Shown in pieces: positions 2,538-26,766 of a stretch of DNA of 64,000 nucleotides; within the stretch, counting starts at the first letter, position 1; every line of letters starts with the position of its first letter. This DNA comes from an uncultured Acidobacteriia bacterium (GTDB lineage Bacteria > Acidobacteriota > Terriglobia > Bryobacterales > Bryobacteraceae): the NCBI GenBank assembly GCA_903900705.1, contig CAIUOG010000175.1, positions 913 through 64,912 on the forward strand, read 5' to 3'. Both the position numbers and the translations under genes were made by a program. The notes under the pieces are model-generated. The model saw only the letters and a list, made by a program, of their open reading frames with translations. It was not told the DNA's origin and did not search any database.

Positions 2538-3923
2538 TCAGCTCCATAAACGATCATTGGAGCGATCCACGTTCCACTCCTCGGTGGGACCGAAGTAGGT
2601 TGTATTCGGCATCAGGTGCCGCTTCATGACATCGTCATTCAGCACCACGCCCAGACCGGGTTTATCCGGCACCGTGATGAAGCCTTTGTTGACAATGGGC
2701 TTTTCCACGCCCTCCACCAGATCACTCCACCAGGGAATGTCCACCGAGTGATTTTCCAGCACGAGGAAGTTTTCCGTGGCGGCGGCGCAATGGACGTTGG
2801 CCATGCAACTGACGGGAGAACCCGCAAAATGCATCACCATGCCGACGCCGTGCTCCTGAATGGCATCGCCGATTTTGTGGGTTTCGAGAATGCCGCCGGA
2901 AGTGGCGAGATCCGGGTGCAGAAGGTCCACCGCGTGCATGGAAGCCAGTTTGATGAAGTTCTCTTTGAGATAGATATCCTCACCGGTCGCGAGCGGAATG
3001 CCGATCTGTGATTTGATCTCCCGGAGAAGTTCCGGATACTGCCAGGGAACCATGTCTTCGAGCCAGGCGAGGTTGTATTTTTCGAGCGCGCGACCGAGGC
3101 GAACGCAGGATTTCACTCCGATGTGGCCGAAGTGGTCGGCTGCGAGCGGAATGTCGTAGCCCACCATTTCGCGGACGGTGGAGACGAACTCGGCCATCTT
3201 GTCGATGCCGCGCGGCGTGAGTTCAATGCCTGTGAACATGTGCTGGGTGTTGCCGCCCTGGCCGAGGTCGGCATTGCCGCCGTCGCCGGGCGTGGGCGCC
3301 GGTCTGGAGAGCGTGCCGGGCTGACCGTTGAGAAGGTCAATGCCCAGGTCCATTTTGAGCCAGGTGAAGCCCTGGTCTTTGCGGAGCTTCAACCTCTGGC
3401 CGTAGATCTTCGGGTCGTCGGATTCAGTGGTATCGGCATAGCAGCGGATACGGTCGCGGAATTTTCCGCCCAGCATCTGCCAGACGGGAACACCGTAGGC
3501 CTTGCCGGCGAGGTCCCAGAGAGCCATTTCGACGGCGCACACGCCGCCCGCCTGGCGGGAGTTACCGCCAAACTGTTTGATCTTGCGGAAGATCCTGTCG
3601 ATATTGCAGGGATTCTCGCCCAGGATACGGCTTTTGAGGAACAGGGCGTAGCGGGCGGTGGCGCCGTCGCGCACCTCGCCCAGGCCATAGATGCCCTGGT
3701 TGGTGTCTATACGGATGATGGGATCCGTCATGGGTGCGCCACGCAGGGTGGCGACGCGAAGATCGGTGATCTTCAGCTGAGAGGGAACCGAGTTCTTACT
3801 GACGTTTTGGGGGGCGCCTTCGAGGGTCTCGTCGGACCAGAAGGAAGTTGCGACCGCGGCTCCCGCGAGCTGGATCAGAGAGCGGCGTCCCAGTTTGCCG
3901 GACGGCATGGATGGTACCTCCAC
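2538..3923 (-). CDS. enolase-superfamily enzyme (mandelate racemase/muconate lactonizing family, sugar-acid dehydratase-like) with Tat signal peptide
   Basis: 461 aa. The N-terminus GKLGRRSLIQLAGAAVATSFW is a twin-arginine motif. Family motifs present are LKMDLG, AADHFGH, WLEDMVPW, ATGEDIY and HPDLATSGG. Confidence 0.8.
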   Translation of the reverse strand: MEVPSMPSGKLGRRSLIQLAGAAVATSFWSDETLEGAPQNVSKNSVPSQLKITDLRVATLRGAPMTDPIIRIDTNQGIYGLGEVRDGATARYALFLKSRILGENPCNIDRIFRKIKQFGGNSRQAGGVCAVEMALWDLAGKAYGVPVWQMLGGKFRDRIRCYADTTESDDPKIYGQRLKLRKDQGFTWLKMDLGIDLLNGQPGTLSRPAPTPGDGGNADLGQGGNTQHMFTGIELTPRGIDKMAEFVSTVREMVGYDIPLAADHFGHIGVKSCVRLGRALEKYNLAWLEDMVPWQYPELLREIKSQIGIPLATGEDIYLKENFIKLASMHAVDLLHPDLATSGGILETHKIGDAIQEHGVGMVMHFAGSPVSCMANVHCAAATENFLVLENHSVDIPWWSDLVEGVEKPIVNKGFITVPDKPGLGVVLNDDVMKRHLMPNTTYFGPTEEWNVDRSNDRLWS

Positions 3924-4047: not shown

Positions 4048-5454
4048 TCAGCCCCGGCGCGCCGGTTTCGGAGCCGGGGCACCCTTCTGGAGAGCATCGA
4101 TTTCCGACCACATCACTTTGCGTTCTTCGTCCATGGCCAGATTGGTGAGGATGACGGTGGCGGAATCGGCGAGGCCGATTTCGAGATTGGCCTTCGGTTT
4201 CCCGTTGGTCTTACAGTCGCGGAAAAAGCTTTCGAGTTCGGTATCGACCGGGTTGCGGGGCTCTTCGGGCATCATGACACCCTTCGAGTACAGCCACTGG
4301 CGGGCGAACTTCATTTCCTTGTCGACAAAGGCTTCGTTGGGGGCCACTTTGTCGCGGTCGAGCAGAATGGGCACGCCCTTGGACGCGCCGGCGGCAACCA
4401 TGGTGGCGCCGGCCACATAGGCCTTCTTTTCACCAGCTTTGGTGACGGAGGGCGGCGGGGTGGGTTCACGATACCAGACGGCCATGACTGGATGGGAGTC
4501 ATCACCGACGGTGATTTCGACCGCGCCCTCGGTACCCATGATGACTTCGCCGAACTCGGTGCGCGTGCCGCCGAACAGCGACAGGTGCGAGTTGGTGGAG
4601 ATGTACATCGAGATCAGCTTCTGCTTCTTCGGGTACTTGTAGATGACCTGAATGTTGTCGAGAATGTCGCGGCCATCGAACTGATAGTCATGGCCGCCAA
4701 CACCCACGATGGACTCGGGCGGAGCGCCGAACATCCACTCGGCGACGTCCACCTGGTGCGATGCCAGTTCGGCCGCCAGACCGCCTGAGTATTCGCGATA
4801 GAGACGCCAGTTGGCCATCTTCTGATCGTTGATATTCGGCATCGGCTTCATCTTCCAGCCGGGGTTGCGGTTCCACTGGGAATACATGTGGGTGACGTTG
4901 CCGAGGACGCCTTTATCGACCATGGCCTTCACGGCCTGGTAGAACTCGCTGTAGCGGCGCTGCAGACCCACCTGCATGACCTGTTTCGGGCGCTGTTCCA
5001 CCAGCGTCCGCAGTTCGGCCATTTCCGGCGCTTTGAACACCAGGCTCTTTTCGCAGAAGACGTGCTTGCCCGCGAGCAGCGCATCCTTGGTGATGGGGAA
5101 GTGCATGAACAGCGGCACCGCGATAATCACGGCGTCGATGTCATTTTTGCTGAGCAGTTCCCGGTAGTCTTTGAACTTCGCCGGGTTGGTGCCGATGGTG
5201 CCGGCGGAACGGTCGAGATGTTCCTGGTTGATGTCGCAGATGGCGACGCAGCGACCGTTATCGATGCCGTGCAGGTGCTTGAGGAGATAGTCTCCGCGGC
5301 TGCCCGTGCCGATGACGCCGTAGCGAATCTGGTCGCCGGCGGCTTTGACGATGGCGGGCGCACCCGTAATCTGAGTGGCGGCGGCAATGGCTGCGCCAGC
5401 CGCGCCGGCAAATTTCACCGCGTCACGGCGGGACAAATCGTTCAATTTCTCCAT
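4048..5454 (-). CDS. Gfo/Idh/MocA family oxidoreductase with Tat signal peptide
   Basis: 468 aa. The N-terminus LSRRDAVKFAGAAGAAIAAA is a twin-arginine motif. A Rossmann motif IRYGVIGTGSRG follows, and VFCEKSL matches the EKP-like motif of this family. Confidence 0.85.
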   Translation of the reverse strand: MEKLNDLSRRDAVKFAGAAGAAIAAATQITGAPAIVKAAGDQIRYGVIGTGSRGDYLLKHLHGIDNGRCVAICDINQEHLDRSAGTIGTNPAKFKDYRELLSKNDIDAVIIAVPLFMHFPITKDALLAGKHVFCEKSLVFKAPEMAELRTLVEQRPKQVMQVGLQRRYSEFYQAVKAMVDKGVLGNVTHMYSQWNRNPGWKMKPMPNINDQKMANWRLYREYSGGLAAELASHQVDVAEWMFGAPPESIVGVGGHDYQFDGRDILDNIQVIYKYPKKQKLISMYISTNSHLSLFGGTRTEFGEVIMGTEGAVEITVGDDSHPVMAVWYREPTPPPSVTKAGEKKAYVAGATMVAAGASKGVPILLDRDKVAPNEAFVDKEMKFARQWLYSKGVMMPEEPRNPVDTELESFFRDCKTNGKPKANLEIGLADSATVILTNLAMDEERKVMWSEIDALQKGAPAPKPARRG

Positions 5455-20634: not shown

Positions 20635-20679
20635 ACGCCAGTTTACCAGGGGAAAGGCTGGACTTTGGCTCGCGCCTAC

Positions 20680-20691
20680 GTTAACGTTAAC
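20680..20691. promoter_or_regulatory. perfect 12-bp palindrome GTTAACGTTAAC in a divergent promoter region (candidate operator)
   Basis: Read directly from the sequence. It lies 21 nt upstream of the TonB-receptor GTG and 46 nt upstream of the beta-lactamase-like ATG. It is the only AT-rich element in a 77-bp intergenic region. Confidence 0.35.
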
Positions 20692-20711
20692 CCTATCTCC
20701 AGTGAGGTCCA

Positions 20712-23700
20712 GTGAAATCCCTGTCTACGATTTTCTTCACCCTTGCGGCATTCATGTCCGCCCCTGTGTTTGCGCAACAGTTGACCGGCAATATCAGCGG
20801 CACGGTAACGGATAAGAGCGGCAGCGTCATCAGCGGCGCGAAGGTCCGCATCACGTCGGAATCGACCGGCGTCACGAAAGATGGCAAGACCAACAGCAGC
20901 GGTGAATTTGAGTTCACCACGGTGCAGGCCGGCAACTACCGGCTGGACGCGCAGCATGCGGGCTTTAAGAAGTTCGAACAGCAGGGCATTGAGCTGACGG
21001 CGAACCAGAGCCTGGCGCTGGGCGAGATTAGACTGACGGTCGGCGACGCCAGCACCACGGTCACCGTTCAGGCAGAGCCCGGCGGCCAGGTGCAGACCTC
21101 CAGCGGGGAACGTTCGGGCGTGGTGACTTCCGGCGAGATTCAGAATCTTTCGGTGATTAACCGCGATTTCTCCACGCTGGTGGCGCTGCTGCCCGGTGTG
21201 GTGGACAACCCCGGGACAGCGGAAGTACAGGGCTTTTCGGGTGGCGCATCTTTCAACGTGAACGGCGGGCGCAACAACGGGAACAGCATTACCATCGACG
21301 GCGGCTCCACCGAGAACACGAATGGCGGCAATGGCAATAACTTCGTGAGTCTCGATTCGATTCAGGCCGTGCGTATTGTGACTTCGAACTATCAGGCGGA
21401 GTTCGGGCGCAAGCCCGCGGCCAGCATCATGGCGATTACCAAGGGCGGCGGCCAGAAGTACCATGGCGCGACCTACTGGTATTACCGCCATGAATGGATG
21501 AACGCGAACCAGTTCTTCAACAACCGGCAGGGGCTGCCGCAAACGCCGCGCCGCGTGCAGACGCCGGGCTTCAACATCGGCGGACCCGCATGGATTCCGG
21601 GTATCTTCAACACCGGCAAGAGCAAGTTGTTTTTCTTCAGTTCGCTCGAATTTATCGAGGAGCGTCGTCCACAGGGAATTGTGAACGTGACCGCGCCCAC
21701 GCAGATGGAACGCAACGGGGACTTCTCCCAATCGAAGAACGGACTGACCACGAAGTTCTATATCAAAGATCCGACACTGACCGGGACCTGCGGCTCGGCC
21801 AGCGCCGCCGCCTGTTTTGCCGGGAACATCATTCCACCCAGCCGGATCAACCCGAGCGGACAGGCGCTGCTCAATCTGCTGCCCATGCCGAATGCGCTGA
21901 ATACCGCGGTGACGGCGGGCGCTTATAACTATTCCGCGCAGGAAAGCCTGAATATTCCGAAAATCTCGACCAGCCACCGGATCGACTACATCATCAACGA
22001 CCGCATGAGCCTCTGGTTCAAATACAACTTCTGGCGGGAGGATCAGCAGGGGTGGGCGGTTTCGGCGGGGAATTCCAACTGGGGCTGGCTGCCGAGTCAC
22101 TATCTGAATCAGACCAATGCGCCGGTAGTGTCGTTCACGCGGGTCATCAGTTCCTCCATGGTGCTGGAAGCCTCCGCCCGTGTGACGCGGTGGACGGAGA
22201 ACGGCGCGCCGCTGAGCGATGCGAGAGTGAAGCAACTGAACCGGAGCACGGCGGGCTTCAACGTGCCGCAGTTGTACCCCGGAGGCAATCCGCTGAATCT
22301 GGTGCCCAATGCCACGTTCGGCGGCGTGACGGGGACCATCAGCACGAGTCTGAACGCCCGCTTCCCGTTGCGCGGAGCGGAAACGCCGGGCTTCAGCGAC
22401 CTGACGCTGACGAAGACGAACGGGCAGCACACGATGAAACTCGGGCTTTATTACGAGCGCTGGCGGGCGGTGAAGGGTGAGAGCGGCAAATGGAACGGCA
22501 GCTTCGATTTCACGGTGGACAGCCTGAATCCGAACGACACACAGAATCCGTTTTCGAATGCGCTGCTGGGGGTTTTCAAGAGCTATTCGGAATCGAACAA
22601 CCGCCCCCCGCTCTATGAGAACAGTACTTCCTACGAATGGTATGTGCAGGATAGCTGGAGGGTGAACCGGAAGCTGACGCTCGATATGGGGGCGCGCATG
22701 GGCTGGTCCACGCCGTTCTATAGTCCGCGTCGCCAGGAAGCTGGTTTTGTGCCGTCGACGTGGGATGCTTCGCAGGCTGTGCGGTTTATCTCGCCGGTGA
22801 AAGTGGGGAGCGTGCGGATGGGCAAGGACCCGCTGACGGGACAGTTGTACCCGGCCATCCTGATCGGGGCGATTGCGCCGAACAGCGGCAATCCCTTCGA
22901 TGGCACCGTGAATCTGCTGACGAATTCCAGCTACCCGCATGGCCTGCGGGAAAACAGCGGACTCAAAATCGCTCCCCGGATCGGCTTCGCGTATGATCCA
23001 TTTGGCGATGGCAAAACCGCGATTCGCGGCGGCTTTGGCATTTTCTATGAAATTCACGAAAAAGACCTTTGGGGCTATGCGCTGCATCTGGATCCGCCGA
23101 ACCAGCTGAGCCCCACCATCGACTACGGAACCTTCTCGTCGCTGGGTGCGAGCCAGGGCTATCTGTTTCCCTCCGCCACCTCCGGACTGAGCGCGGACCG
23201 TAAACTCGCGAGGACCATGAGCTACAGCTTCGGCATCCAGCGGCAGTTGCCCGCGGGCGTGCTGCTCGATGTGGCGTATGTAGCCACGCTGGGCCGCCAT
23301 CTGCTGGAAAGGAAAGACCTGAACTCCATTGCGGCGGGAACGACCCTGAACCCGGCAAATCTGGACGCGACGAACAACAACGCGGCGCTGCCGACGCAGT
23401 TCCTGTATCCCTACGCGGGCTATACGAACATTTATTACTACAATTACGACGCCAATTCGAGCTACCACTCCCTGCAGACCACGGCGAACCGGCGAATTAC
23501 CCGCGGGCTTTCCGGAGGCATCTCCTGGACATGGTCGAAGGCCATGGATTACGACGATATCGACACGACCAGCCTGAGCAACCTGGTGAGCCCGAAAATC
23601 CGCGATTATGGCAAGGCCGGGTTCGACCGGACGCATATCCTGAAGGGCACCTGGATTTATTCAATCCCGACTGGCAGCCGTTTCGTGCCGGGGAAGAACT

Positions 23701-24230
23701 GGCTGGTGCGGTCGGCCGCGGTGGGAGCGCTGGATGGCTGGCAGATGTCGGGAATCATGACGCTGATGAGCGGCGCGCCGTTGGGAGTTACGCTGGGGAC
23801 GCAGACGGGGAGCAACACGAACTGGTCCGGCTCGCCGACCGATGCCGCTCGTCCGAACGTAATTTCGGACCCGGTGCTGCCCAAAGATCAGCGGACTTTC
23901 TATCTGAACGTGAACCCGGCGGCCTTCGCATTGCCGGCGCAGGGTTCGCTCGGGAATGCGCCGAAGGACGTCTTTCGCGGACCCGGACGGAATAACTTCG
24001 ATATTTCGCTGTTTAAGAACTTCAGGCTGAACGAGCGGTTCCGGGCGCAATTCCGGGCCGAAGCCTACAACGTGTTCAACCATACGCAGTTCACCTCGGT
24101 CGATACGACGATCCGGTTCGATAACCGGGCCGGAGCCACCTACGGGCAAGTCGTGCCCACCACTTTTGGGCAGTTTACGGCGGCGGGACTGGCAAGGCGG
24201 ATGCAACTGGGGCTGCGGGTGGATTTCTGA
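20712..24230 (+). CDS. TonB-dependent receptor with N-terminal carboxypeptidase-regulatory-like domain
   Basis: 1172 aa. Signal peptide, then GNISGTVTDKSGSVISGAKV (CarboxypepD_reg), a plug region, and a C-terminal beta-barrel ending in RMQLGLRVDF (terminal aromatic). GTG start with GAGG 4 nt upstream. Confidence 0.9.
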   Translation: MKSLSTIFFTLAAFMSAPVFAQQLTGNISGTVTDKSGSVISGAKVRITSESTGVTKDGKTNSSGEFEFTTVQAGNYRLDAQHAGFKKFEQQGIELTANQSLALGEIRLTVGDASTTVTVQAEPGGQVQTSSGERSGVVTSGEIQNLSVINRDFSTLVALLPGVVDNPGTAEVQGFSGGASFNVNGGRNNGNSITIDGGSTENTNGGNGNNFVSLDSIQAVRIVTSNYQAEFGRKPAASIMAITKGGGQKYHGATYWYYRHEWMNANQFFNNRQGLPQTPRRVQTPGFNIGGPAWIPGIFNTGKSKLFFFSSLEFIEERRPQGIVNVTAPTQMERNGDFSQSKNGLTTKFYIKDPTLTGTCGSASAAACFAGNIIPPSRINPSGQALLNLLPMPNALNTAVTAGAYNYSAQESLNIPKISTSHRIDYIINDRMSLWFKYNFWREDQQGWAVSAGNSNWGWLPSHYLNQTNAPVVSFTRVISSSMVLEASARVTRWTENGAPLSDARVKQLNRSTAGFNVPQLYPGGNPLNLVPNATFGGVTGTISTSLNARFPLRGAETPGFSDLTLTKTNGQHTMKLGLYYERWRAVKGESGKWNGSFDFTVDSLNPNDTQNPFSNALLGVFKSYSESNNRPPLYENSTSYEWYVQDSWRVNRKLTLDMGARMGWSTPFYSPRRQEAGFVPSTWDASQAVRFISPVKVGSVRMGKDPLTGQLYPAILIGAIAPNSGNPFDGTVNLLTNSSYPHGLRENSGLKIAPRIGFAYDPFGDGKTAIRGGFGIFYEIHEKDLWGYALHLDPPNQLSPTIDYGTFSSLGASQGYLFPSATSGLSADRKLARTMSYSFGIQRQLPAGVLLDVAYVATLGRHLLERKDLNSIAAGTTLNPANLDATNNNAALPTQFLYPYAGYTNIYYYNYDANSSYHSLQTTANRRITRGLSGGISWTWSKAMDYDDIDTTSLSNLVSPKIRDYGKAGFDRTHILKGTWIYSIPTGSRFVPGKNWLVRSAAVGALDGWQMSGIMTLMSGAPLGVTLGTQTGSNTNWSGSPTDAARPNVISDPVLPKDQRTFYLNVNPAAFALPAQGSLGNAPKDVFRGPGRNNFDISLFKNFRLNERFRAQFRAEAYNVFNHTQFTSVDTTIRFDNRAGATYGQVVPTTFGQFTAAGLARRMQLGLRVDF

Positions 24231-24337: not shown

Positions 24338-25426
24338 TTAGCGCCGGAATCCACGAAAGCCGCCGTAGTAACCGTATGAAAAGCGCGGACCAACGTAAAC
24401 GGAAAGACCCGGGCCCCAATAATACGGAGAATAAGCGGGGCCGTAATAGTAGGGATCGTACGCCGGGCGATAGACCGGAACCGGAGCGCCGGCGGGCGGC
24501 CCCTGACGGGCGCTGTACCCGCCATGGCCGTAATCACTCTGTTCGGCGTAACGGAAAGCCTGGGGCGCGCGGTAGGTGGCAACGGTGACCGGCGACTGCA
24601 CCTGGAATGTGATCAGAGATTCCGGATAAATCACGCTCGGGCGGCCCCGGGTGAGCAGGACGCCGATAATACCGGCAGCCGCGCCCGCTCCGGCTCCGAT
24701 GGCGGCGCCCCGTCCGTCACCCGCGCCCGCTCCGATGATGGCGCCGAGAGCAGTGGTGGTTCCCACCGCGCCTGCGTCCCGTCCGACCGAAGTCTGACCA
24801 TTGCGCGTCACCATCTGCGATTGCATACCGACCTGCTGACCATCGACGAGCGTCAACCCGATCAGTTCCACGCCGAGCTTTGACGTGCCTTCCACGCGGC
24901 CGGCCTTCTGCGCATCGGTCACGCGGCCACGAACGGTCTGACCACGCTGCGCCACCACAACGCCATCCACCACGATCGGTTCCGCAAGGCTGGCGAAGAA
25001 GGTGTCGCCCTGCTGGTTGCGGTCGGACGAAAGAAGTTGGTTGATTCGAACCGAGACGTAAGTACCCGGACGGATGGTCAGGGTCGCGGGTACGGCGGGT
25101 TGATTTGGATAGGGTTGATTTGGATAGGGTTGATTTGGATACGGTTGATTCGGATAGGGTTGCGTCTGGTAAGCGGGCTGCGCCGGGCTCTGGCCATTAT
25201 TCTGGTTGGCATTGAAGTTGGGCGGCGGGGGCGGCGCCTGATTCTGCGACTGGTCCGGGTAGGTTGGGGCAGCGGTGCTGACGTCGTCCGCGCGACGCCA
25301 CTGGTGCGGCTGATTCTGAGAAGTAGTGTCCTGCGCTGCCGCAAAGCCCGTTACGACAAGCAGGCCGGCAAGAAGATAACGGGAAGTGCGGTTTTTAGAA
25401 GCGAGCATAGAGTATTGAACCGTCAT
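24338..25426 (-). CDS. secreted Pro/Gln/Asn-rich repeat protein with glycine-zipper segment and Tyr/Gly-rich C-terminus (hypothetical)
   Basis: Signal peptide LLAGLLVVTGFAAAQD. (PYPNQ)x4 repeats. A central beta-rich region reads TIRPGTYVSVRINQLLSSDRNQQGDTFFA. Glycine zipper GAIIGAGAGDGRGAAIGAGAGAAAGIIG. An alternative start is at 25408. Confidence 0.65.
   Translation of the reverse strand: MTVQYSMLASKNRTSRYLLAGLLVVTGFAAAQDTTSQNQPHQWRRADDVSTAAPTYPDQSQNQAPPPPPNFNANQNNGQSPAQPAYQTQPYPNQPYPNQPYPNQPYPNQPAVPATLTIRPGTYVSVRINQLLSSDRNQQGDTFFASLAEPIVVDGVVVAQRGQTVRGRVTDAQKAGRVEGTSKLGVELIGLTLVDGQQVGMQSQMVTRNGQTSVGRDAGAVGTTTALGAIIGAGAGDGRGAAIGAGAGAAAGIIGVLLTRGRPSVIYPESLITFQVQSPVTVATYRAPQAFRYAEQSDYGHGGYSARQGPPAGAPVPVYRPAYDPYYYGPAYSPYYWGPGLSVYVGPRFSYGYYGGFRGFRR
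25097..25171 (-). repeat. 15-bp in-frame tandem repeat (4 good copies plus 1 degenerate) encoding PYPNQ units
   Basis: GGGTTGATTTGGATA occurs three times, then CGGTTGATTCGGATA, then GGGTTGCGTCTGGTA. Confidence 0.9.
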
Positions 25427-25440
25427 GCTGCTCTACGTCG

Positions 25441-25456
25441 AGCAACTGACATGCCA
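25441..25456 (-). promoter_or_regulatory. sigma-54 (-24/-12) promoter
   Basis: The minus strand reads TGGCATGTCAGTTGCT. The consensus is TGGCAC-N5-TTGCW. GG and GC are spaced correctly, and the element sits 15 nt upstream of the first ATG of the downstream gene. Confidence 0.55.
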
Positions 25457-25692
25457 AACTTCAAACTGTTGATTCTAATAAGAAAGACACTGACGCACCC
25501 ATGGTCACCCGCCACCAGGGCGGTGGTTTTCAACCAGCGGGGCGGTAATGTGCACCACTTCCGCCACCGGCCGAAACAGAATCACCGGGCGCTGGTTTAT
25601 GCACACGGAATCCACCGCTTGCAGCGGCTAAGTAACTGAAAAAATGAGACTAAAAATCCTGTGGAAAGCCCCGAAAAAGGCTCTGTTTCCGT

Positions 25693-25722
25693 TTGACATC
25701 CCGCTCCCGTGACGGGCATGAT
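25693..25722 (+). promoter_or_regulatory. candidate sigma-70 promoter for the plus-strand non-coding unit
   Basis: Perfect TTGACA at 25693-25698, an 18-nt spacer, then CATGAT at 25717-25722 (3 of 6 matches to TATAAT). Confidence 0.3.
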
Positions 25723-25728
25723 CGTCTC

Positions 25729-26067
25729 AGTTCCAGGGTTTACGGAACGATCTGTCCGGCGGGAAACAGCGGGGTCTTCGGGTCGCGCGGGATTCCGCCA
25801 GTCATTTTCGGAAGGTGCGGGGTTGGGCGCTTGGATCCGGAGGGCTGCTTGCGGCCCGATGGGGAGTGTGGAACCCCGGGCCTTCGGGAGCGCCCCCGTT
25901 TGAGTCCGAAAGGGCCTGACGGGGATGTGGAACGGATGGGGCAGGCCGGGAACGTTGACCCCGCGATGGCATGAGAATGTCGGCGCGGGCGAGCGAAAGG
26001 CCGTTTCAGAAGTTCCGGTGAACGGGGAGCGATCCCCCGGAACGTACCGTAATCCCTGGGCTTTTTT
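25729..26067 (+). ncRNA. candidate structured non-coding RNA of about 340 nt, class unknown
   Basis: There is no credible ORF. The 5' segment 25732-25745 pairs with the 3' segment 26047-26060 (12 Watson-Crick pairs plus 1 GU over 14 positions), followed by C then T6. Internal hairpins are capped by CUUG, GAAA, UUCG and GCGA tetraloops on this strand only. Confidence 0.35.
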
Positions 26068-26070
26068 GTT

Positions 26071-26766
26071 TCAGGAAGTGGATTCCGGATTGGTTTCCGC
26101 GGGCGGCGCCGCCGGTTCCCGGCCTACGACGACAGCGGATTTGAGGCCAGGCAAAACCCGGAGTGCCTTTTCCGGAGCGGATGGCTGAGCGGAAGCAGCC
26201 GGTCCGTCGGGCTTTTTGGTGTTCGCGAGGCCGGACGCCACTCGCTCCGCGTTCTCGCGCATCCGTAATTGGGCCGCTTCCCGCGCCAGTTCCTCGGCCT
26301 CCGCGCGGGCTTCCGCCAGAGCGGCCGCTTCCTCCAGTTCACGGACCTCCTGAGCCTTGGCCTCCATCTCCGCCATTCGGGCGCGCCCCTGCGCGACGGC
26401 GTCCCCCGAATTCAGGTTCTTCCAGCGCTTAAACGTGAAGACTTCCTTGCGTTTGCGGAAACTGGCAAAGTTAATGCGGCAGTACTCGCAGCGCCAGCGG
26501 TTGGCGCCGAATGATGCCATCAGGCCCACCCAGAACGGAGGCTCGTAGTTCTTCCCGGTCCACTGGTTCAGATCCATGCGGTCGCACTTGGGACAATGCG
26601 CCCACCGGATATCCCCCAGGCTCAGAGTACTGGCTACAAAACGGGTCTTGCAGTCCAGACAACGCAGCGGAGAAACAAAGCGCCACTGCGCGAGTTTCTC
26701 GGCGGCATCACGGGGCTTTGACTCCCGGAGGAAGCGGCTACCGCAATTGGGGCATTGTACTGGCAT
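26071..26766 (-). CDS. double zinc-ribbon protein (4 CxxC pairs) with Ala/Glu-rich coiled-coil tail (hypothetical)
   Basis: The four pairs are CPNC, CLDC, CPKC and CEYC. These are followed by MAEMEAKAQEVRELEEAAALAEARAEAEELAREAAQLR. It lies 13 nt downstream of the aminotransferase gene. Confidence 0.6.
   Translation of the reverse strand: MPVQCPNCGSRFLRESKPRDAAEKLAQWRFVSPLRCLDCKTRFVASTLSLGDIRWAHCPKCDRMDLNQWTGKNYEPPFWVGLMASFGANRWRCEYCRINFASFRKRKEVFTFKRWKNLNSGDAVAQGRARMAEMEAKAQEVRELEEAAALAEARAEAEELAREAAQLRMRENAERVASGLANTKKPDGPAASAQPSAPEKALRVLPGLKSAVVVGREPAAPPAETNPESTS

Follow-up and report, generated by a model that had tools for sequence, protein, structure and literature searches.

A structured RNA gene and its family in Acidobacteriota, from a contig of an uncultured Bryobacteraceae bacterium

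Large, intricately folded RNAs are rare in bacteria. They comprise ribosomal RNA, RNase P RNA, transfer-messenger RNA (tmRNA), group I and group II introns, signal recognition particle (SRP) RNA, OLE, ROOL and GOLLD, and raiA, and each of them has a fundamental function or is a prominent open puzzle. OLE RNA (RF01071) is an ornate RNA of about 600 nt in Bacillota that forms a ribonucleoprotein (RNP) with OapA, OapB, and OapC, and ROOL and GOLLD are found in a prophage or transfer RNA (tRNA) context. The Acidobacteriota are among the most abundant soil bacteria and are genetically poorly studied. Here, a 64,000-nt stretch of DNA from an uncultured Bryobacteraceae bacterium (assembly GCA_903900705.1, contig CAIUOG010000175.1, positions 913 to 64,912 of the forward strand) was analyzed; this whole stretch is called the window, and positions are counted from its first letter. 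An RNA gene lies on the plus strand of the window at 25729-26061 and gives an RNA of about 333 nt, from AGUUCC to CCCUGGGC, which is the minimal ("short") form of a family; that it is a real structured RNA gene is nearly certain. The original prediction was of an RNA of about 340 nt in a unit running from a promoter to a U-tract. The unit stands, at 333 nt, but the RNA is a reduced variant of a 530-620-nt family and not a member of a 340-nt class. Taken as a whole, the results are best explained, with fair confidence, by a stand-alone gene for a large structured noncoding RNA that acts in trans as an RNP scaffold or protein-binding partner, and we consider with good confidence that the family has not been described before in Rfam 15 or the open-access literature.

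ROOL and GOLLD are described in PMC12286853 as large ornate RNAs forming RNA-only oligomeric cages, and the same source describes homo-oligomers of ROOL, GOLLD, and OLE by cryo-electron microscopy (cryo-EM). The raiA motif RNA is about 200 nt, occurs in Bacillota and Actinomycetota, and is very abundant (PMC10861870, PMC12968392). These orphan large RNAs are the nearest analogues of the window RNA; they are alike in kind, but no test of membership gave a match to any of them. Like OLE, the window RNA has a free-standing gene, is a large multi-domain RNA with many invariant unpaired nucleotides, is present in one copy per genome, is restricted to a lineage, and is apparently abundant; in both cases the function is not deducible from the context, and an uncharacterized small-protein gene adjoins the RNA as a candidate partner. 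It differs from OLE in having no sequence or structure match to it, in belonging to Acidobacteriota and not Bacillota, in that no counterpart of an OLE partner has been shown, and in its natural minimization (330 vs 600 nt). With ROOL and GOLLD it shares the size class, an ornate multi-helix architecture, and GNRA loops, and a palindromic loop of the long forms could mediate self-association. Unlike ROOL and GOLLD, it has no covariance model match, is chromosomal with a strong promoter of its own, has short forms in which the palindromic-loop domain is dispensable, is not near tRNAs, and had no matches in the viral contigs, plasmids, and phages searched. Like raiA, it is an orphan, highly structured, apparently highly expressed stand-alone RNA that is widespread within certain phyla; unlike raiA, it has no covariance model match, is larger, and is found in another phylum and another gene context. 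The likeness to bacterial RNase P RNA (RF00010/RF00011) lies in a P1 closing helix that pairs the ends, a constant core with lineage-variable peripheral helices, and a single-copy housekeeping-style gene; the differences are that there is no covariance model match at any threshold, that universal conserved blocks are not present, and that the family is restricted to a phylum.

Three acidobacterial motifs of Weinberg et al. 2010 (PMC2864571), Acido-1 (RF01686), Acido-Lenti-1 (RF01687), and Solibacter-1, come from the same phylum and were likewise found by comparative intergenic analysis. The first two are in Rfam and did not match the window RNA. Solibacter-1 is a 118-nt three-stem junction with many copies in S. 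usitatus and the consensus AAGUCUUUUCGCCGGUCUCCUCCACGUAGGGGAACC..., and is not in Rfam (PMC2864571). It was rejected as a relative, since its published sequences are without evident similarity by eye and it is a 118-nt multi-copy motif vs a single-copy RNA of 330-620 nt.

Searches against known families were done using the 4227 covariance models of Rfam 15, which include RNase P RNA, tmRNA, SRP RNA, 6S RNA, OLE, ROOL, GOLLD, raiA, HEARO, group I and II introns, riboswitches, Acido-1, and Acido-Lenti-1. At gathering thresholds, cmscan gave no matches in the whole window or in six homologous loci, and none in the loci of a second subfamily (subfamily 2, below) except for a fragment of tmRNA that adjoins the RNA in one chimeric contig. 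At E ≤ 10, short forms, long forms, and subfamily 2 gave only noise (small nucleolar RNA, long noncoding RNA, and human immunodeficiency virus elements, all ≤17 bits). The claim that the RNA is undescribed, for which a comparison with Rfam including the two Acido models had been proposed, thus holds by cmscan. No tRNA or tmRNA gene was found in the window using ARAGORN, and no description of such an RNA was found in the open-access literature, including surveys of the Breaker/Weinberg type. A very divergent copy of a known housekeeping RNA (RNase P, tmRNA, SRP, or 6S) missed by the covariance models would share with the window RNA a helix that closes the 5' and 3' ends, an apparently high abundance, and a single copy in each genome. 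We regard this as extremely unlikely, given that short and long forms do not match these families even at E ≤ 10, that ARAGORN finds no tmRNA while a normal tmRNA fragment from the same communities is recognized, that the universal RNase P and SRP blocks are not present by eye, and that the family appears limited to one phylum.

Promoter, ends, and consensus fold of the RNA

Features of the gene are listed in Table 1. The -35 and -10 hexamers are separated by an 18-nt spacer and form the sole promoter-like site in 25300-26300 (10/12 matches vs 0.2 expected in the promoter scan), so that the promoter of the original prediction was verified in its coordinates and as a single site. The -10 hexamer is 7 nt from the conserved 5' end, consistent with a start at A25729. 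TTGAC is in the same position in every genome-derived homolog listed, and the promoter was found in 8/9 metagenome contigs having the RNA 5' end among the matches listed. A stand-alone gene is indicated by the series TTGAC, 17-18 nt, CATGAT/TATGAT/CATCAT, about 7 nt, and AGUUCC, which is present in essentially all genome homologs, and by a G+C-rich helix followed by a U-tract at the 3' end. The ends given here for the window RNA are inferred from the promoter spacing and from a junction between RNA copies in contig L093 (...CCCTGGAC / AGTTCC...).

At the ends, the 5' arm TCCAGGGTTTACGG (25732-25745) can pair with its complement at 26047-26060, after which come C26061 and T26062-26067; this bears out the pairing of the arms and the T-tract that had been predicted. 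In alignment A3 (below), most of the 33 sequences have a T-run after P1, as does the subfamily 2 consensus, and P1 with the U-tract would function as a terminator. The predicted terminator of the RNA is not listed by a simple terminator scan because its helix is long-range (P1) and not a local hairpin. The plus strand has a G>C skew of +0.16 to +0.30 over 25700-26099.

The sense strand of 25729-26067 has a minimum free energy (MFE) of -176.5 kcal/mol (z = -5.53, with 0/100 dinucleotide shuffles as good), vs z = -0.82 for the antisense strand; for a long homolog, the values are z = -5.37 and z = -2.19. The strand specificity of the fold, originally argued from loop sequences, is confirmed by this control on both strands.

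Covariation was analyzed using alignment A3, a sequence-based MAFFT alignment of 33 distinct sequences of subfamily 1, to which the window RNA belongs. RNAalifold predicted 105 pairs, 62 of them with compensatory changes, and a RIBOSUM-scored consensus gave 192 pairs in 29 helices. Standard pairing was present in 91.5% of the cells of these 192 pairs vs 35-41% when the 3' partner was slid by 1-3 columns, although the consensus structure was derived from the same sequences as those counted and the slid controls are somewhat flattering. Pairs changed on both sides numbered 105 vs a shuffle mean of 68, cells changed on both sides 499 vs 158, and the covariation score was 0.284 vs 0.158; on each of five measures, 0/500 shuffles reached the observed value. 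Homologous regions rich in compensatory changes (105/192 pairs), proposed earlier as a check on the RNA, therefore exist. Examples in P1 are columns 11/695 of A3 (GC 28, AU 4) and 15/691 (UG 15, CG 10, UA 7, AU 1). A scan of non-nested covarying columns for pseudoknots gave one weak candidate only, CGGGG of peripheral domain 2 with CCUCG in the loop of domain 3, and none is claimed.

The hairpins first read from the window sequence fared differently against this consensus. The closing helix is real and longer than described (Table 1). The GAAA hairpin at 25904-25915 within 25894-25899/25919-25924 matches P7 and its tip. The CUUG hairpin at 25842-25857 is real as the tip of P6, but its loop sequence is not conserved. 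The GCGA hairpin is also real (P10), but the 7-bp helix drawn around it (26012-26018/26037-26043) is displaced by P8, in which GUUCC at 26012-26016 pairs with GGAAC at 25929-25933; this pairing is preferred by both MFE and covariation. The supposed cUUCGg tetraloop at 25882-25887 had to be given up, being part of the 3' strand of P3, whose 9/9 pairs covary.

In both subfamilies, the 5' end can also form a local hairpin that cannot coexist with P1 (GUUCC-N9-11-GGAAC; 25729-25748 in the window), with the form GUUCC-AGGGUUUAC-GGAAC in subfamily 1 and GUUCC-AAGAGGUUUGA-GGAAC in subfamily 2. This hairpin might serve as a switch or arise as an intermediate during co-transcriptional folding.

Table 1. 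Features of the RNA gene in the window
Feature	Position	Strand	Basis and remarks
Upstream promoter region, TGAAA..AAAA.CTG.GGAAAG block, then T-rich tract directly before -35	25633-25692	+	Alignment of 31 upstream regions; nhmmer in nearly all loci
-35 hexamer TTGACA	25693-25698	+	Promoter scan; family consensus TTGAC
-10 hexamer CATGAT	25717-25722	+	Promoter scan and upstream alignment; family CATGAT / TATGAT / CATCAT
P1, 5' strand, nearly invariant GUUCCAGGGUUUACGGAACGA	25730-25750	+	19 pairs, 98.2% paired
P2 hairpin	25754-25766 / 25791-25803	+	7/11 pairs with changes on both sides; peripheral domain 2 at tip in long forms
P3, enclosing P4-P6	25806-25814 / 25881-25889	+	9/9 pairs compensatory; kept in subfamily 2
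P4-P5-P6 arm	25819-25846 / 25853-25876	+	Invariant internal loops GAACGCUUuGAUCCGGAGGG ... CCCGAaGGGGAGUGG; tip in window is CUUG loop 25848-25851
P7	25890-25899 / 25919-25928	+	9/10 pairs compensatory; tip hairpin GUCC-GAAA-GGGC 25904-25915; peripheral domain 3 here in long forms
P8	25929-25947 / 25999-26015	+	Encloses conserved purine-rich internal loop (GGGAAC.UUGA / GAGCGAAA) and P9
P9	25952-25969 / 25980-25994	+	Covariation consensus mapped to window
P10 hairpin GGGGA-GCGA-UCCCC	26024-26037	+	MFE and alignment A3; simple hairpin of other sequence in other short forms
P1, 3' strand ACGUACCGUAAUCCCUGGGC	26042-26061	+	Consensus mapped to window
U-tract	26062-26067	+	Forms terminator-like 3' end with P1; stop codon of convergent gene at 26071-26073

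Homologs, size forms, and subfamilies

Related contigs were fetched via homologs of the zinc-ribbon protein encoded next to the RNA. Using nhmmer with the window region, a homolog was found in every fetched locus except one metagenome-assembled genome (MAG), with E values of 1e-28 to 1e-60, at the syntenic site just downstream of the zinc-ribbon gene and on the opposite strand. The alignments have an invariant 5' end (CAGUUCCAGG.UU.ACGGAACGAU), conserved internal blocks, a conserved 3' end, and the promoter in register. An exact-pattern scan with the 5' motif over one genome per GTDB species gave 39 loci, of which 32 are Acidobacteriota MAGs named Bryobacterales, Bryobacteraceae, Solibacteraceae, Terriglobia, or Acidobacteriia, with one match per genome; in each of these the homolog spans the RNA or runs to the edge of the stored stretch. 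The other 7 loci (L054 from Ca. Angelobacter and six non-acidobacterial loci) were rejected as chance matches without homology, and true and false matches are cleanly separated by nhmmer. As far as seen, the family is confined to Acidobacteriota (Bryobacterales and other Terriglobia-type MAGs).

Hypothetical open reading frames (ORFs) without Pfam families have been annotated over the RNA by public gene calls, at 4662-5198 on the minus strand of L001 (178 aa) and at 4457-4765 on the minus strand of L005 (102 aa). These ORFs are almost certainly spurious.

Such calls, and the superficial likeness of the P1 inverted repeat to a terminal inverted repeat (TIR), could be taken to favor a small protein-coding gene or a miniature inverted-repeat transposable element (MITE) or other repeat. 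For the protein, the gap around the RNA holds only short ORFs without a conserved frame, in agreement with the initial observation that it has no protein-like ORF; 5-7 of 6-8 pairwise indels between the window and four other short forms are not multiples of 3, indels of 1-2 nt occur, and the longest open frame differs from homolog to homolog. For the MITE, raised as an alternative in the original prediction, the window has a single nhmmer match in its 64 kb, the 32 MAGs have one each, the promoter and terminator are always the same, the neighbors are largely the same in conserved synteny, and compensatory changes occur in the supposed TIR and throughout the RNA. Both were rejected, and together they have a negligible chance of being correct.

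Most homologs are 530-620 nt. Short forms of 330-390 nt comprise the window RNA and at least five others (L007, L001, L004, L020, and L035); they are without three peripheral domains, which in long forms extend the tips of P2 and P7 and replace P10. Intermediate losses of domains are seen in L013, L021, L017, L023, L040, L046, L051, and L053, so that the peripheral domains are gained and lost as modules around a constant core. The lineage of the window has lost these domains, and its copy is therefore close to the minimal functional core. Reading of the long-form alignments showed two repeated modules, UUGAUCC-stem-GGGGAGYG in the core and domain 2, and UUGACC-stem-GCGAGCG in P9 and the 3' domain, which suggests that the long forms grew by internal duplication.

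Metagenome contigs were scanned using an internal motif that is independent of the 5' end (CAGG.C.GGA.C...GACC...AGYGAAAGRCC), giving at least 120 loci. Among the matches listed, 120/120 fit the family profile, with about one-third belonging to subfamily 1 and the rest to subfamily 2, which is diverged and about 530-570 nt in size. A terminal helix of its own (GGUUCCAAG.../...CUUGGAACC and a U-tract) is combined in subfamily 2 with the same core blocks and architecture. On its own it gave 184 pairs, 88.3% paired, with compensatory change in 122 pairs, and joint alignment of the P3-P6 arm of both subfamilies gave one structure (88.6% paired vs 41-55% when slid). Its taxonomy is coarse: by protein search, the named relative of one neighboring protein is "Acidobacteriota bacterium."

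In long forms, the position of P10 is taken by peripheral domain 4, or 3' domain, which has an invariant palindromic GCAUGC in its hairpin loop in all 28 long forms (A3 columns 660-665; for example, L011 at about 3466-3471, minus strand). GCAUGC is also present in subfamily 2 (consensus CCGUGCAUGCCGG) and is absent from the window short form; it is a possible kissing-loop or protein site. As a kissing contact, it would allow an RNA-only architectural particle, in which the RNA self-assembles into homo-oligomers as do ROOL, GOLLD, and OLE. The invariance of the palindrome in 28/28 long forms and its recurrence in subfamily 2 fit such a particle, as do a size and ornateness like those of ROOL and OLE, for which PMC12286853 describes cryo-EM oligomers. 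However, the window RNA and at least five other short forms are conserved without the GCAUGC domain, so the palindrome is not essential to the core function; the RNA is also not found in a prophage or tRNA context as ROOL and GOLLD are, and the viral contigs searched gave no match. The loss of this domain in the window lineage argues that the loop is outside the essential core, and a particle of this kind is distinctly unlikely.

RNA-only contigs of joined copies

Among the matches listed, 11 short Joint Genome Institute contigs hold at least two RNA copies, head-to-tail or head-to-head, and 6/11 are ≥85% RNA; contigs with joined copies include L093 (1-1155), L106 (1-1122), L068, L128, L153, L058, and L078. 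Different variants are fused, the two subfamilies are fused in L068 and L153, and in L078 the RNA is fused to a tmRNA fragment (1133-1426, 72.9 bits by Rfam cmscan). The joints are without promoter or T-tract. Where a copy touches a contig end, it mostly falls short of the predicted 5' end by 7-21 nt or of the 3' end by about 10-17 nt, and the limits of the RNA-only contigs are within about 10-27 nt of the predicted ends. In L093, an exact 3'-to-5' joint links ...CCGTGAACCCTGGAC directly to AGTTCCAGGG..., in agreement with a 5' end at A25729; the joint in L106 omits the outer part of P1.

Because the joined copies are only 84-89% identical, the contigs were read as chimeras of very abundant transcripts and not as circles, and a circular-RNA reading of the tandem contigs was not adopted. 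They are most likely assembly or reverse transcription chimeras of abundant RNAs, which suggests that the RNA is an abundant, stable transcript. A bolder addition is that the exact 3'-to-5' joints might be real end-joining, which would make the RNA circular or concatenated.

The L093 and L106 joints would also fit the defined, possibly ligatable ends of a ribozyme, with the core P3-P9 and its invariant unpaired purines as an active site (self-processing or in trans) and with peripheral domains that only stabilize the fold, in the manner of RNase P RNA and group I introns. The large size, the many invariant unpaired nucleotides, the several GNRA-type loops, and the optional domains around a constant core are in keeping with this. 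A ribozyme is nevertheless rather unlikely: no Rfam ribozyme family matches, flanking exons and a mobile-element context are absent, no substrate is indicated, and the joints link non-identical variants and so are more likely artefacts.

Gene neighbors and proposed role

Both flanking genes are on the minus strand. The RNA diverges from a gene for a 362-aa protein (24338-25426) and converges on the gene for the 231-aa zinc-ribbon protein (26071-26766). The RNA had been called antisense-oriented; it is on the strand opposite to both neighbors, but only in the positional sense, as it overlaps neither gene in the window. The divergent 362-aa gene is upstream in about 26/29 assessable loci of subfamily 1, and a convergent pair of genes for a class IV aminotransferase (Aminotran_4) and the zinc-ribbon protein is downstream in about 25/29. 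In subfamily 2, this pair is present in 7/26 loci, at 40-60% protein identity, and the other loci have unrelated neighbors. The 362-aa protein is of secreted type, with an N-terminal hydrophobic segment, a (Q)PYPNQ repeat (×5), a glycine-zipper-like stretch, and a Tyr/Gly/Pro-rich tail, and it is in no Pfam or NCBIfam family. Distinctive parts of the zinc-ribbon protein are four CxxC motifs, a basic conserved block, and an invariant block W-R-C-E-Y-C-R..N-F...R.R.E.F.F.R-W, and among its homologs (P0001-P0120) the family has so far been seen only in Acidobacteriota sources, with few matches carrying an organism name. In every case, the aminotransferase gene immediately precedes the zinc-ribbon gene, in the same orientation and with no more than a few bases between them.

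About 200 nt of intergenic DNA upstream of the promoter (25495-25692) are conserved in nearly all RNA-bearing loci (nhmmer E values of 1e-21 to 1e-4). Conserved blocks are GCCACCA-loop-TGGTG-TTTTCA at 25509-25535, which is terminator-like on the plus strand, GCTGGTTTATGCACA..AATCCACC at 25588-25617, and TGAAA..AAAA.CTG.GGAAAG at 25633-25666. These blocks might control the divergent gene pair or be an element in the 5' untranslated region of the 362-aa gene, and the last block with the T-rich tract (25633-25692) may be an UP-like element or a regulator site. Elsewhere in the window, a 986-aa ORF at 20676-23636 (minus strand) is antisense to the gene for a 1172-aa TonB-dependent-receptor-like protein at 20712-24230 (plus strand; OMP_b-brl_4 / CarboxypepD_reg); such shadow ORFs are typical of G+C-rich genomes, and this one is not a gene.

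A cis-regulatory leader or riboswitch was rejected, as the next downstream gene is convergent and the RNA ends in its own predicted terminator. The absence of a downstream gene on the same strand and the varied contexts of subfamily 2 likewise argue against cis-regulation. A local cis or antisense element would instead control the convergent aminotransferase/zinc-ribbon operon or the divergent 362-aa gene by its transcription or its terminator, through interference, a shared terminator, or a shared control region. In the window, 3 nt separate the end of the RNA unit from the stop codon of the convergent gene, the convergent operon is without an obvious minus-strand terminator of its own, and the 362-aa gene and the shared intergenic region are conserved upstream. 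Yet a covarying multi-domain fold of 330-620 nt far exceeds the needs of interference or termination, the convergent gene overlaps the RNA or is a few nt away in some loci but is >900 nt away in others, and the RNA occurs without either neighbor in L027, without the zinc-ribbon gene in L032, L040, and L046, and with other neighbors in most subfamily 2 loci. Local control of this sort is very unlikely.

The trans-acting scaffold or binding partner is proposed as follows. Transcription would start near A25729 from the RNA's own sigma-70-type promoter. The ends of the RNA would pair in P1, of about 20 bp, which with the U-tract would make the 3' end and probably also shields both ends. The body would be a multi-branched core, P2-P9, with invariant purine-rich internal loops. 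The stable, abundant folded RNA would then act in trans as a scaffold or binding partner of one or more proteins in an RNP, rather than as a cis-regulator of a neighbor. For this role in trans taken separately, an RNP or protein-binding function is plausible, but we put it forward tentatively. The zinc-ribbon protein is the sole candidate partner offered by the context, being convergent in both subfamilies, and that it is the partner is doubtful.

Besides the derivation of the consensus structure from the counted sequences, several points weigh against this proposal. The results do not tell an RNP scaffold from a ribozyme or a self-assembling RNA, and the expression and abundance of the RNA are deduced from contigs of unverified sample type. 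The zinc-ribbon protein belongs to no family of Pfam or NCBIfam, a profile search of the PDB matched only generic zinc fingers, and these weakly (E > 0.1), and confidence in its AlphaFold2 model is restricted to a long helix and the N-terminal ribbon (predicted local distance difference test score 72.9, predicted template modeling score 0.39). The linkage of RNA and zinc-ribbon gene could be explained by the aminotransferase and zinc-ribbon genes being apparently one operon, and it may reflect synteny kept by descent. MAG RYN_16 has the RNA (L040) and the zinc-ribbon gene (L009) on separate contigs, with no RNA beside the gene, and the pairing is therefore not obligatory.

With these points in mind, we lean toward regarding the window RNA as the founding example of an unrecognized class of large "ornate" bacterial RNA. 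Such a class would be single-copy, strongly promoted, and 330-620 nt in size, with at least two deep subfamilies in Acidobacteriota of soil and peat, apparently abundant enough in transcript assemblies from the environment to form chimeras with itself and with tmRNA, and its invariant core would have a biochemical job new to RNA, as a new ribozyme or as the RNA subunit of a new RNP; the 333-nt form of the window would mark that functional core. In current annotation, public pipelines put spurious ORFs on the RNA gene. The two diverged subfamilies are rich material for covariation, the natural minimal variants outline the core, candidate partner genes are at hand, and biochemical work can begin directly from these sequences. 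If the proposal is true, a conserved, strongly promoted, and apparently highly expressed RNA of 330-620 nt that is specific to Acidobacteriota would be a new entry on the short list of large structured bacterial RNAs.

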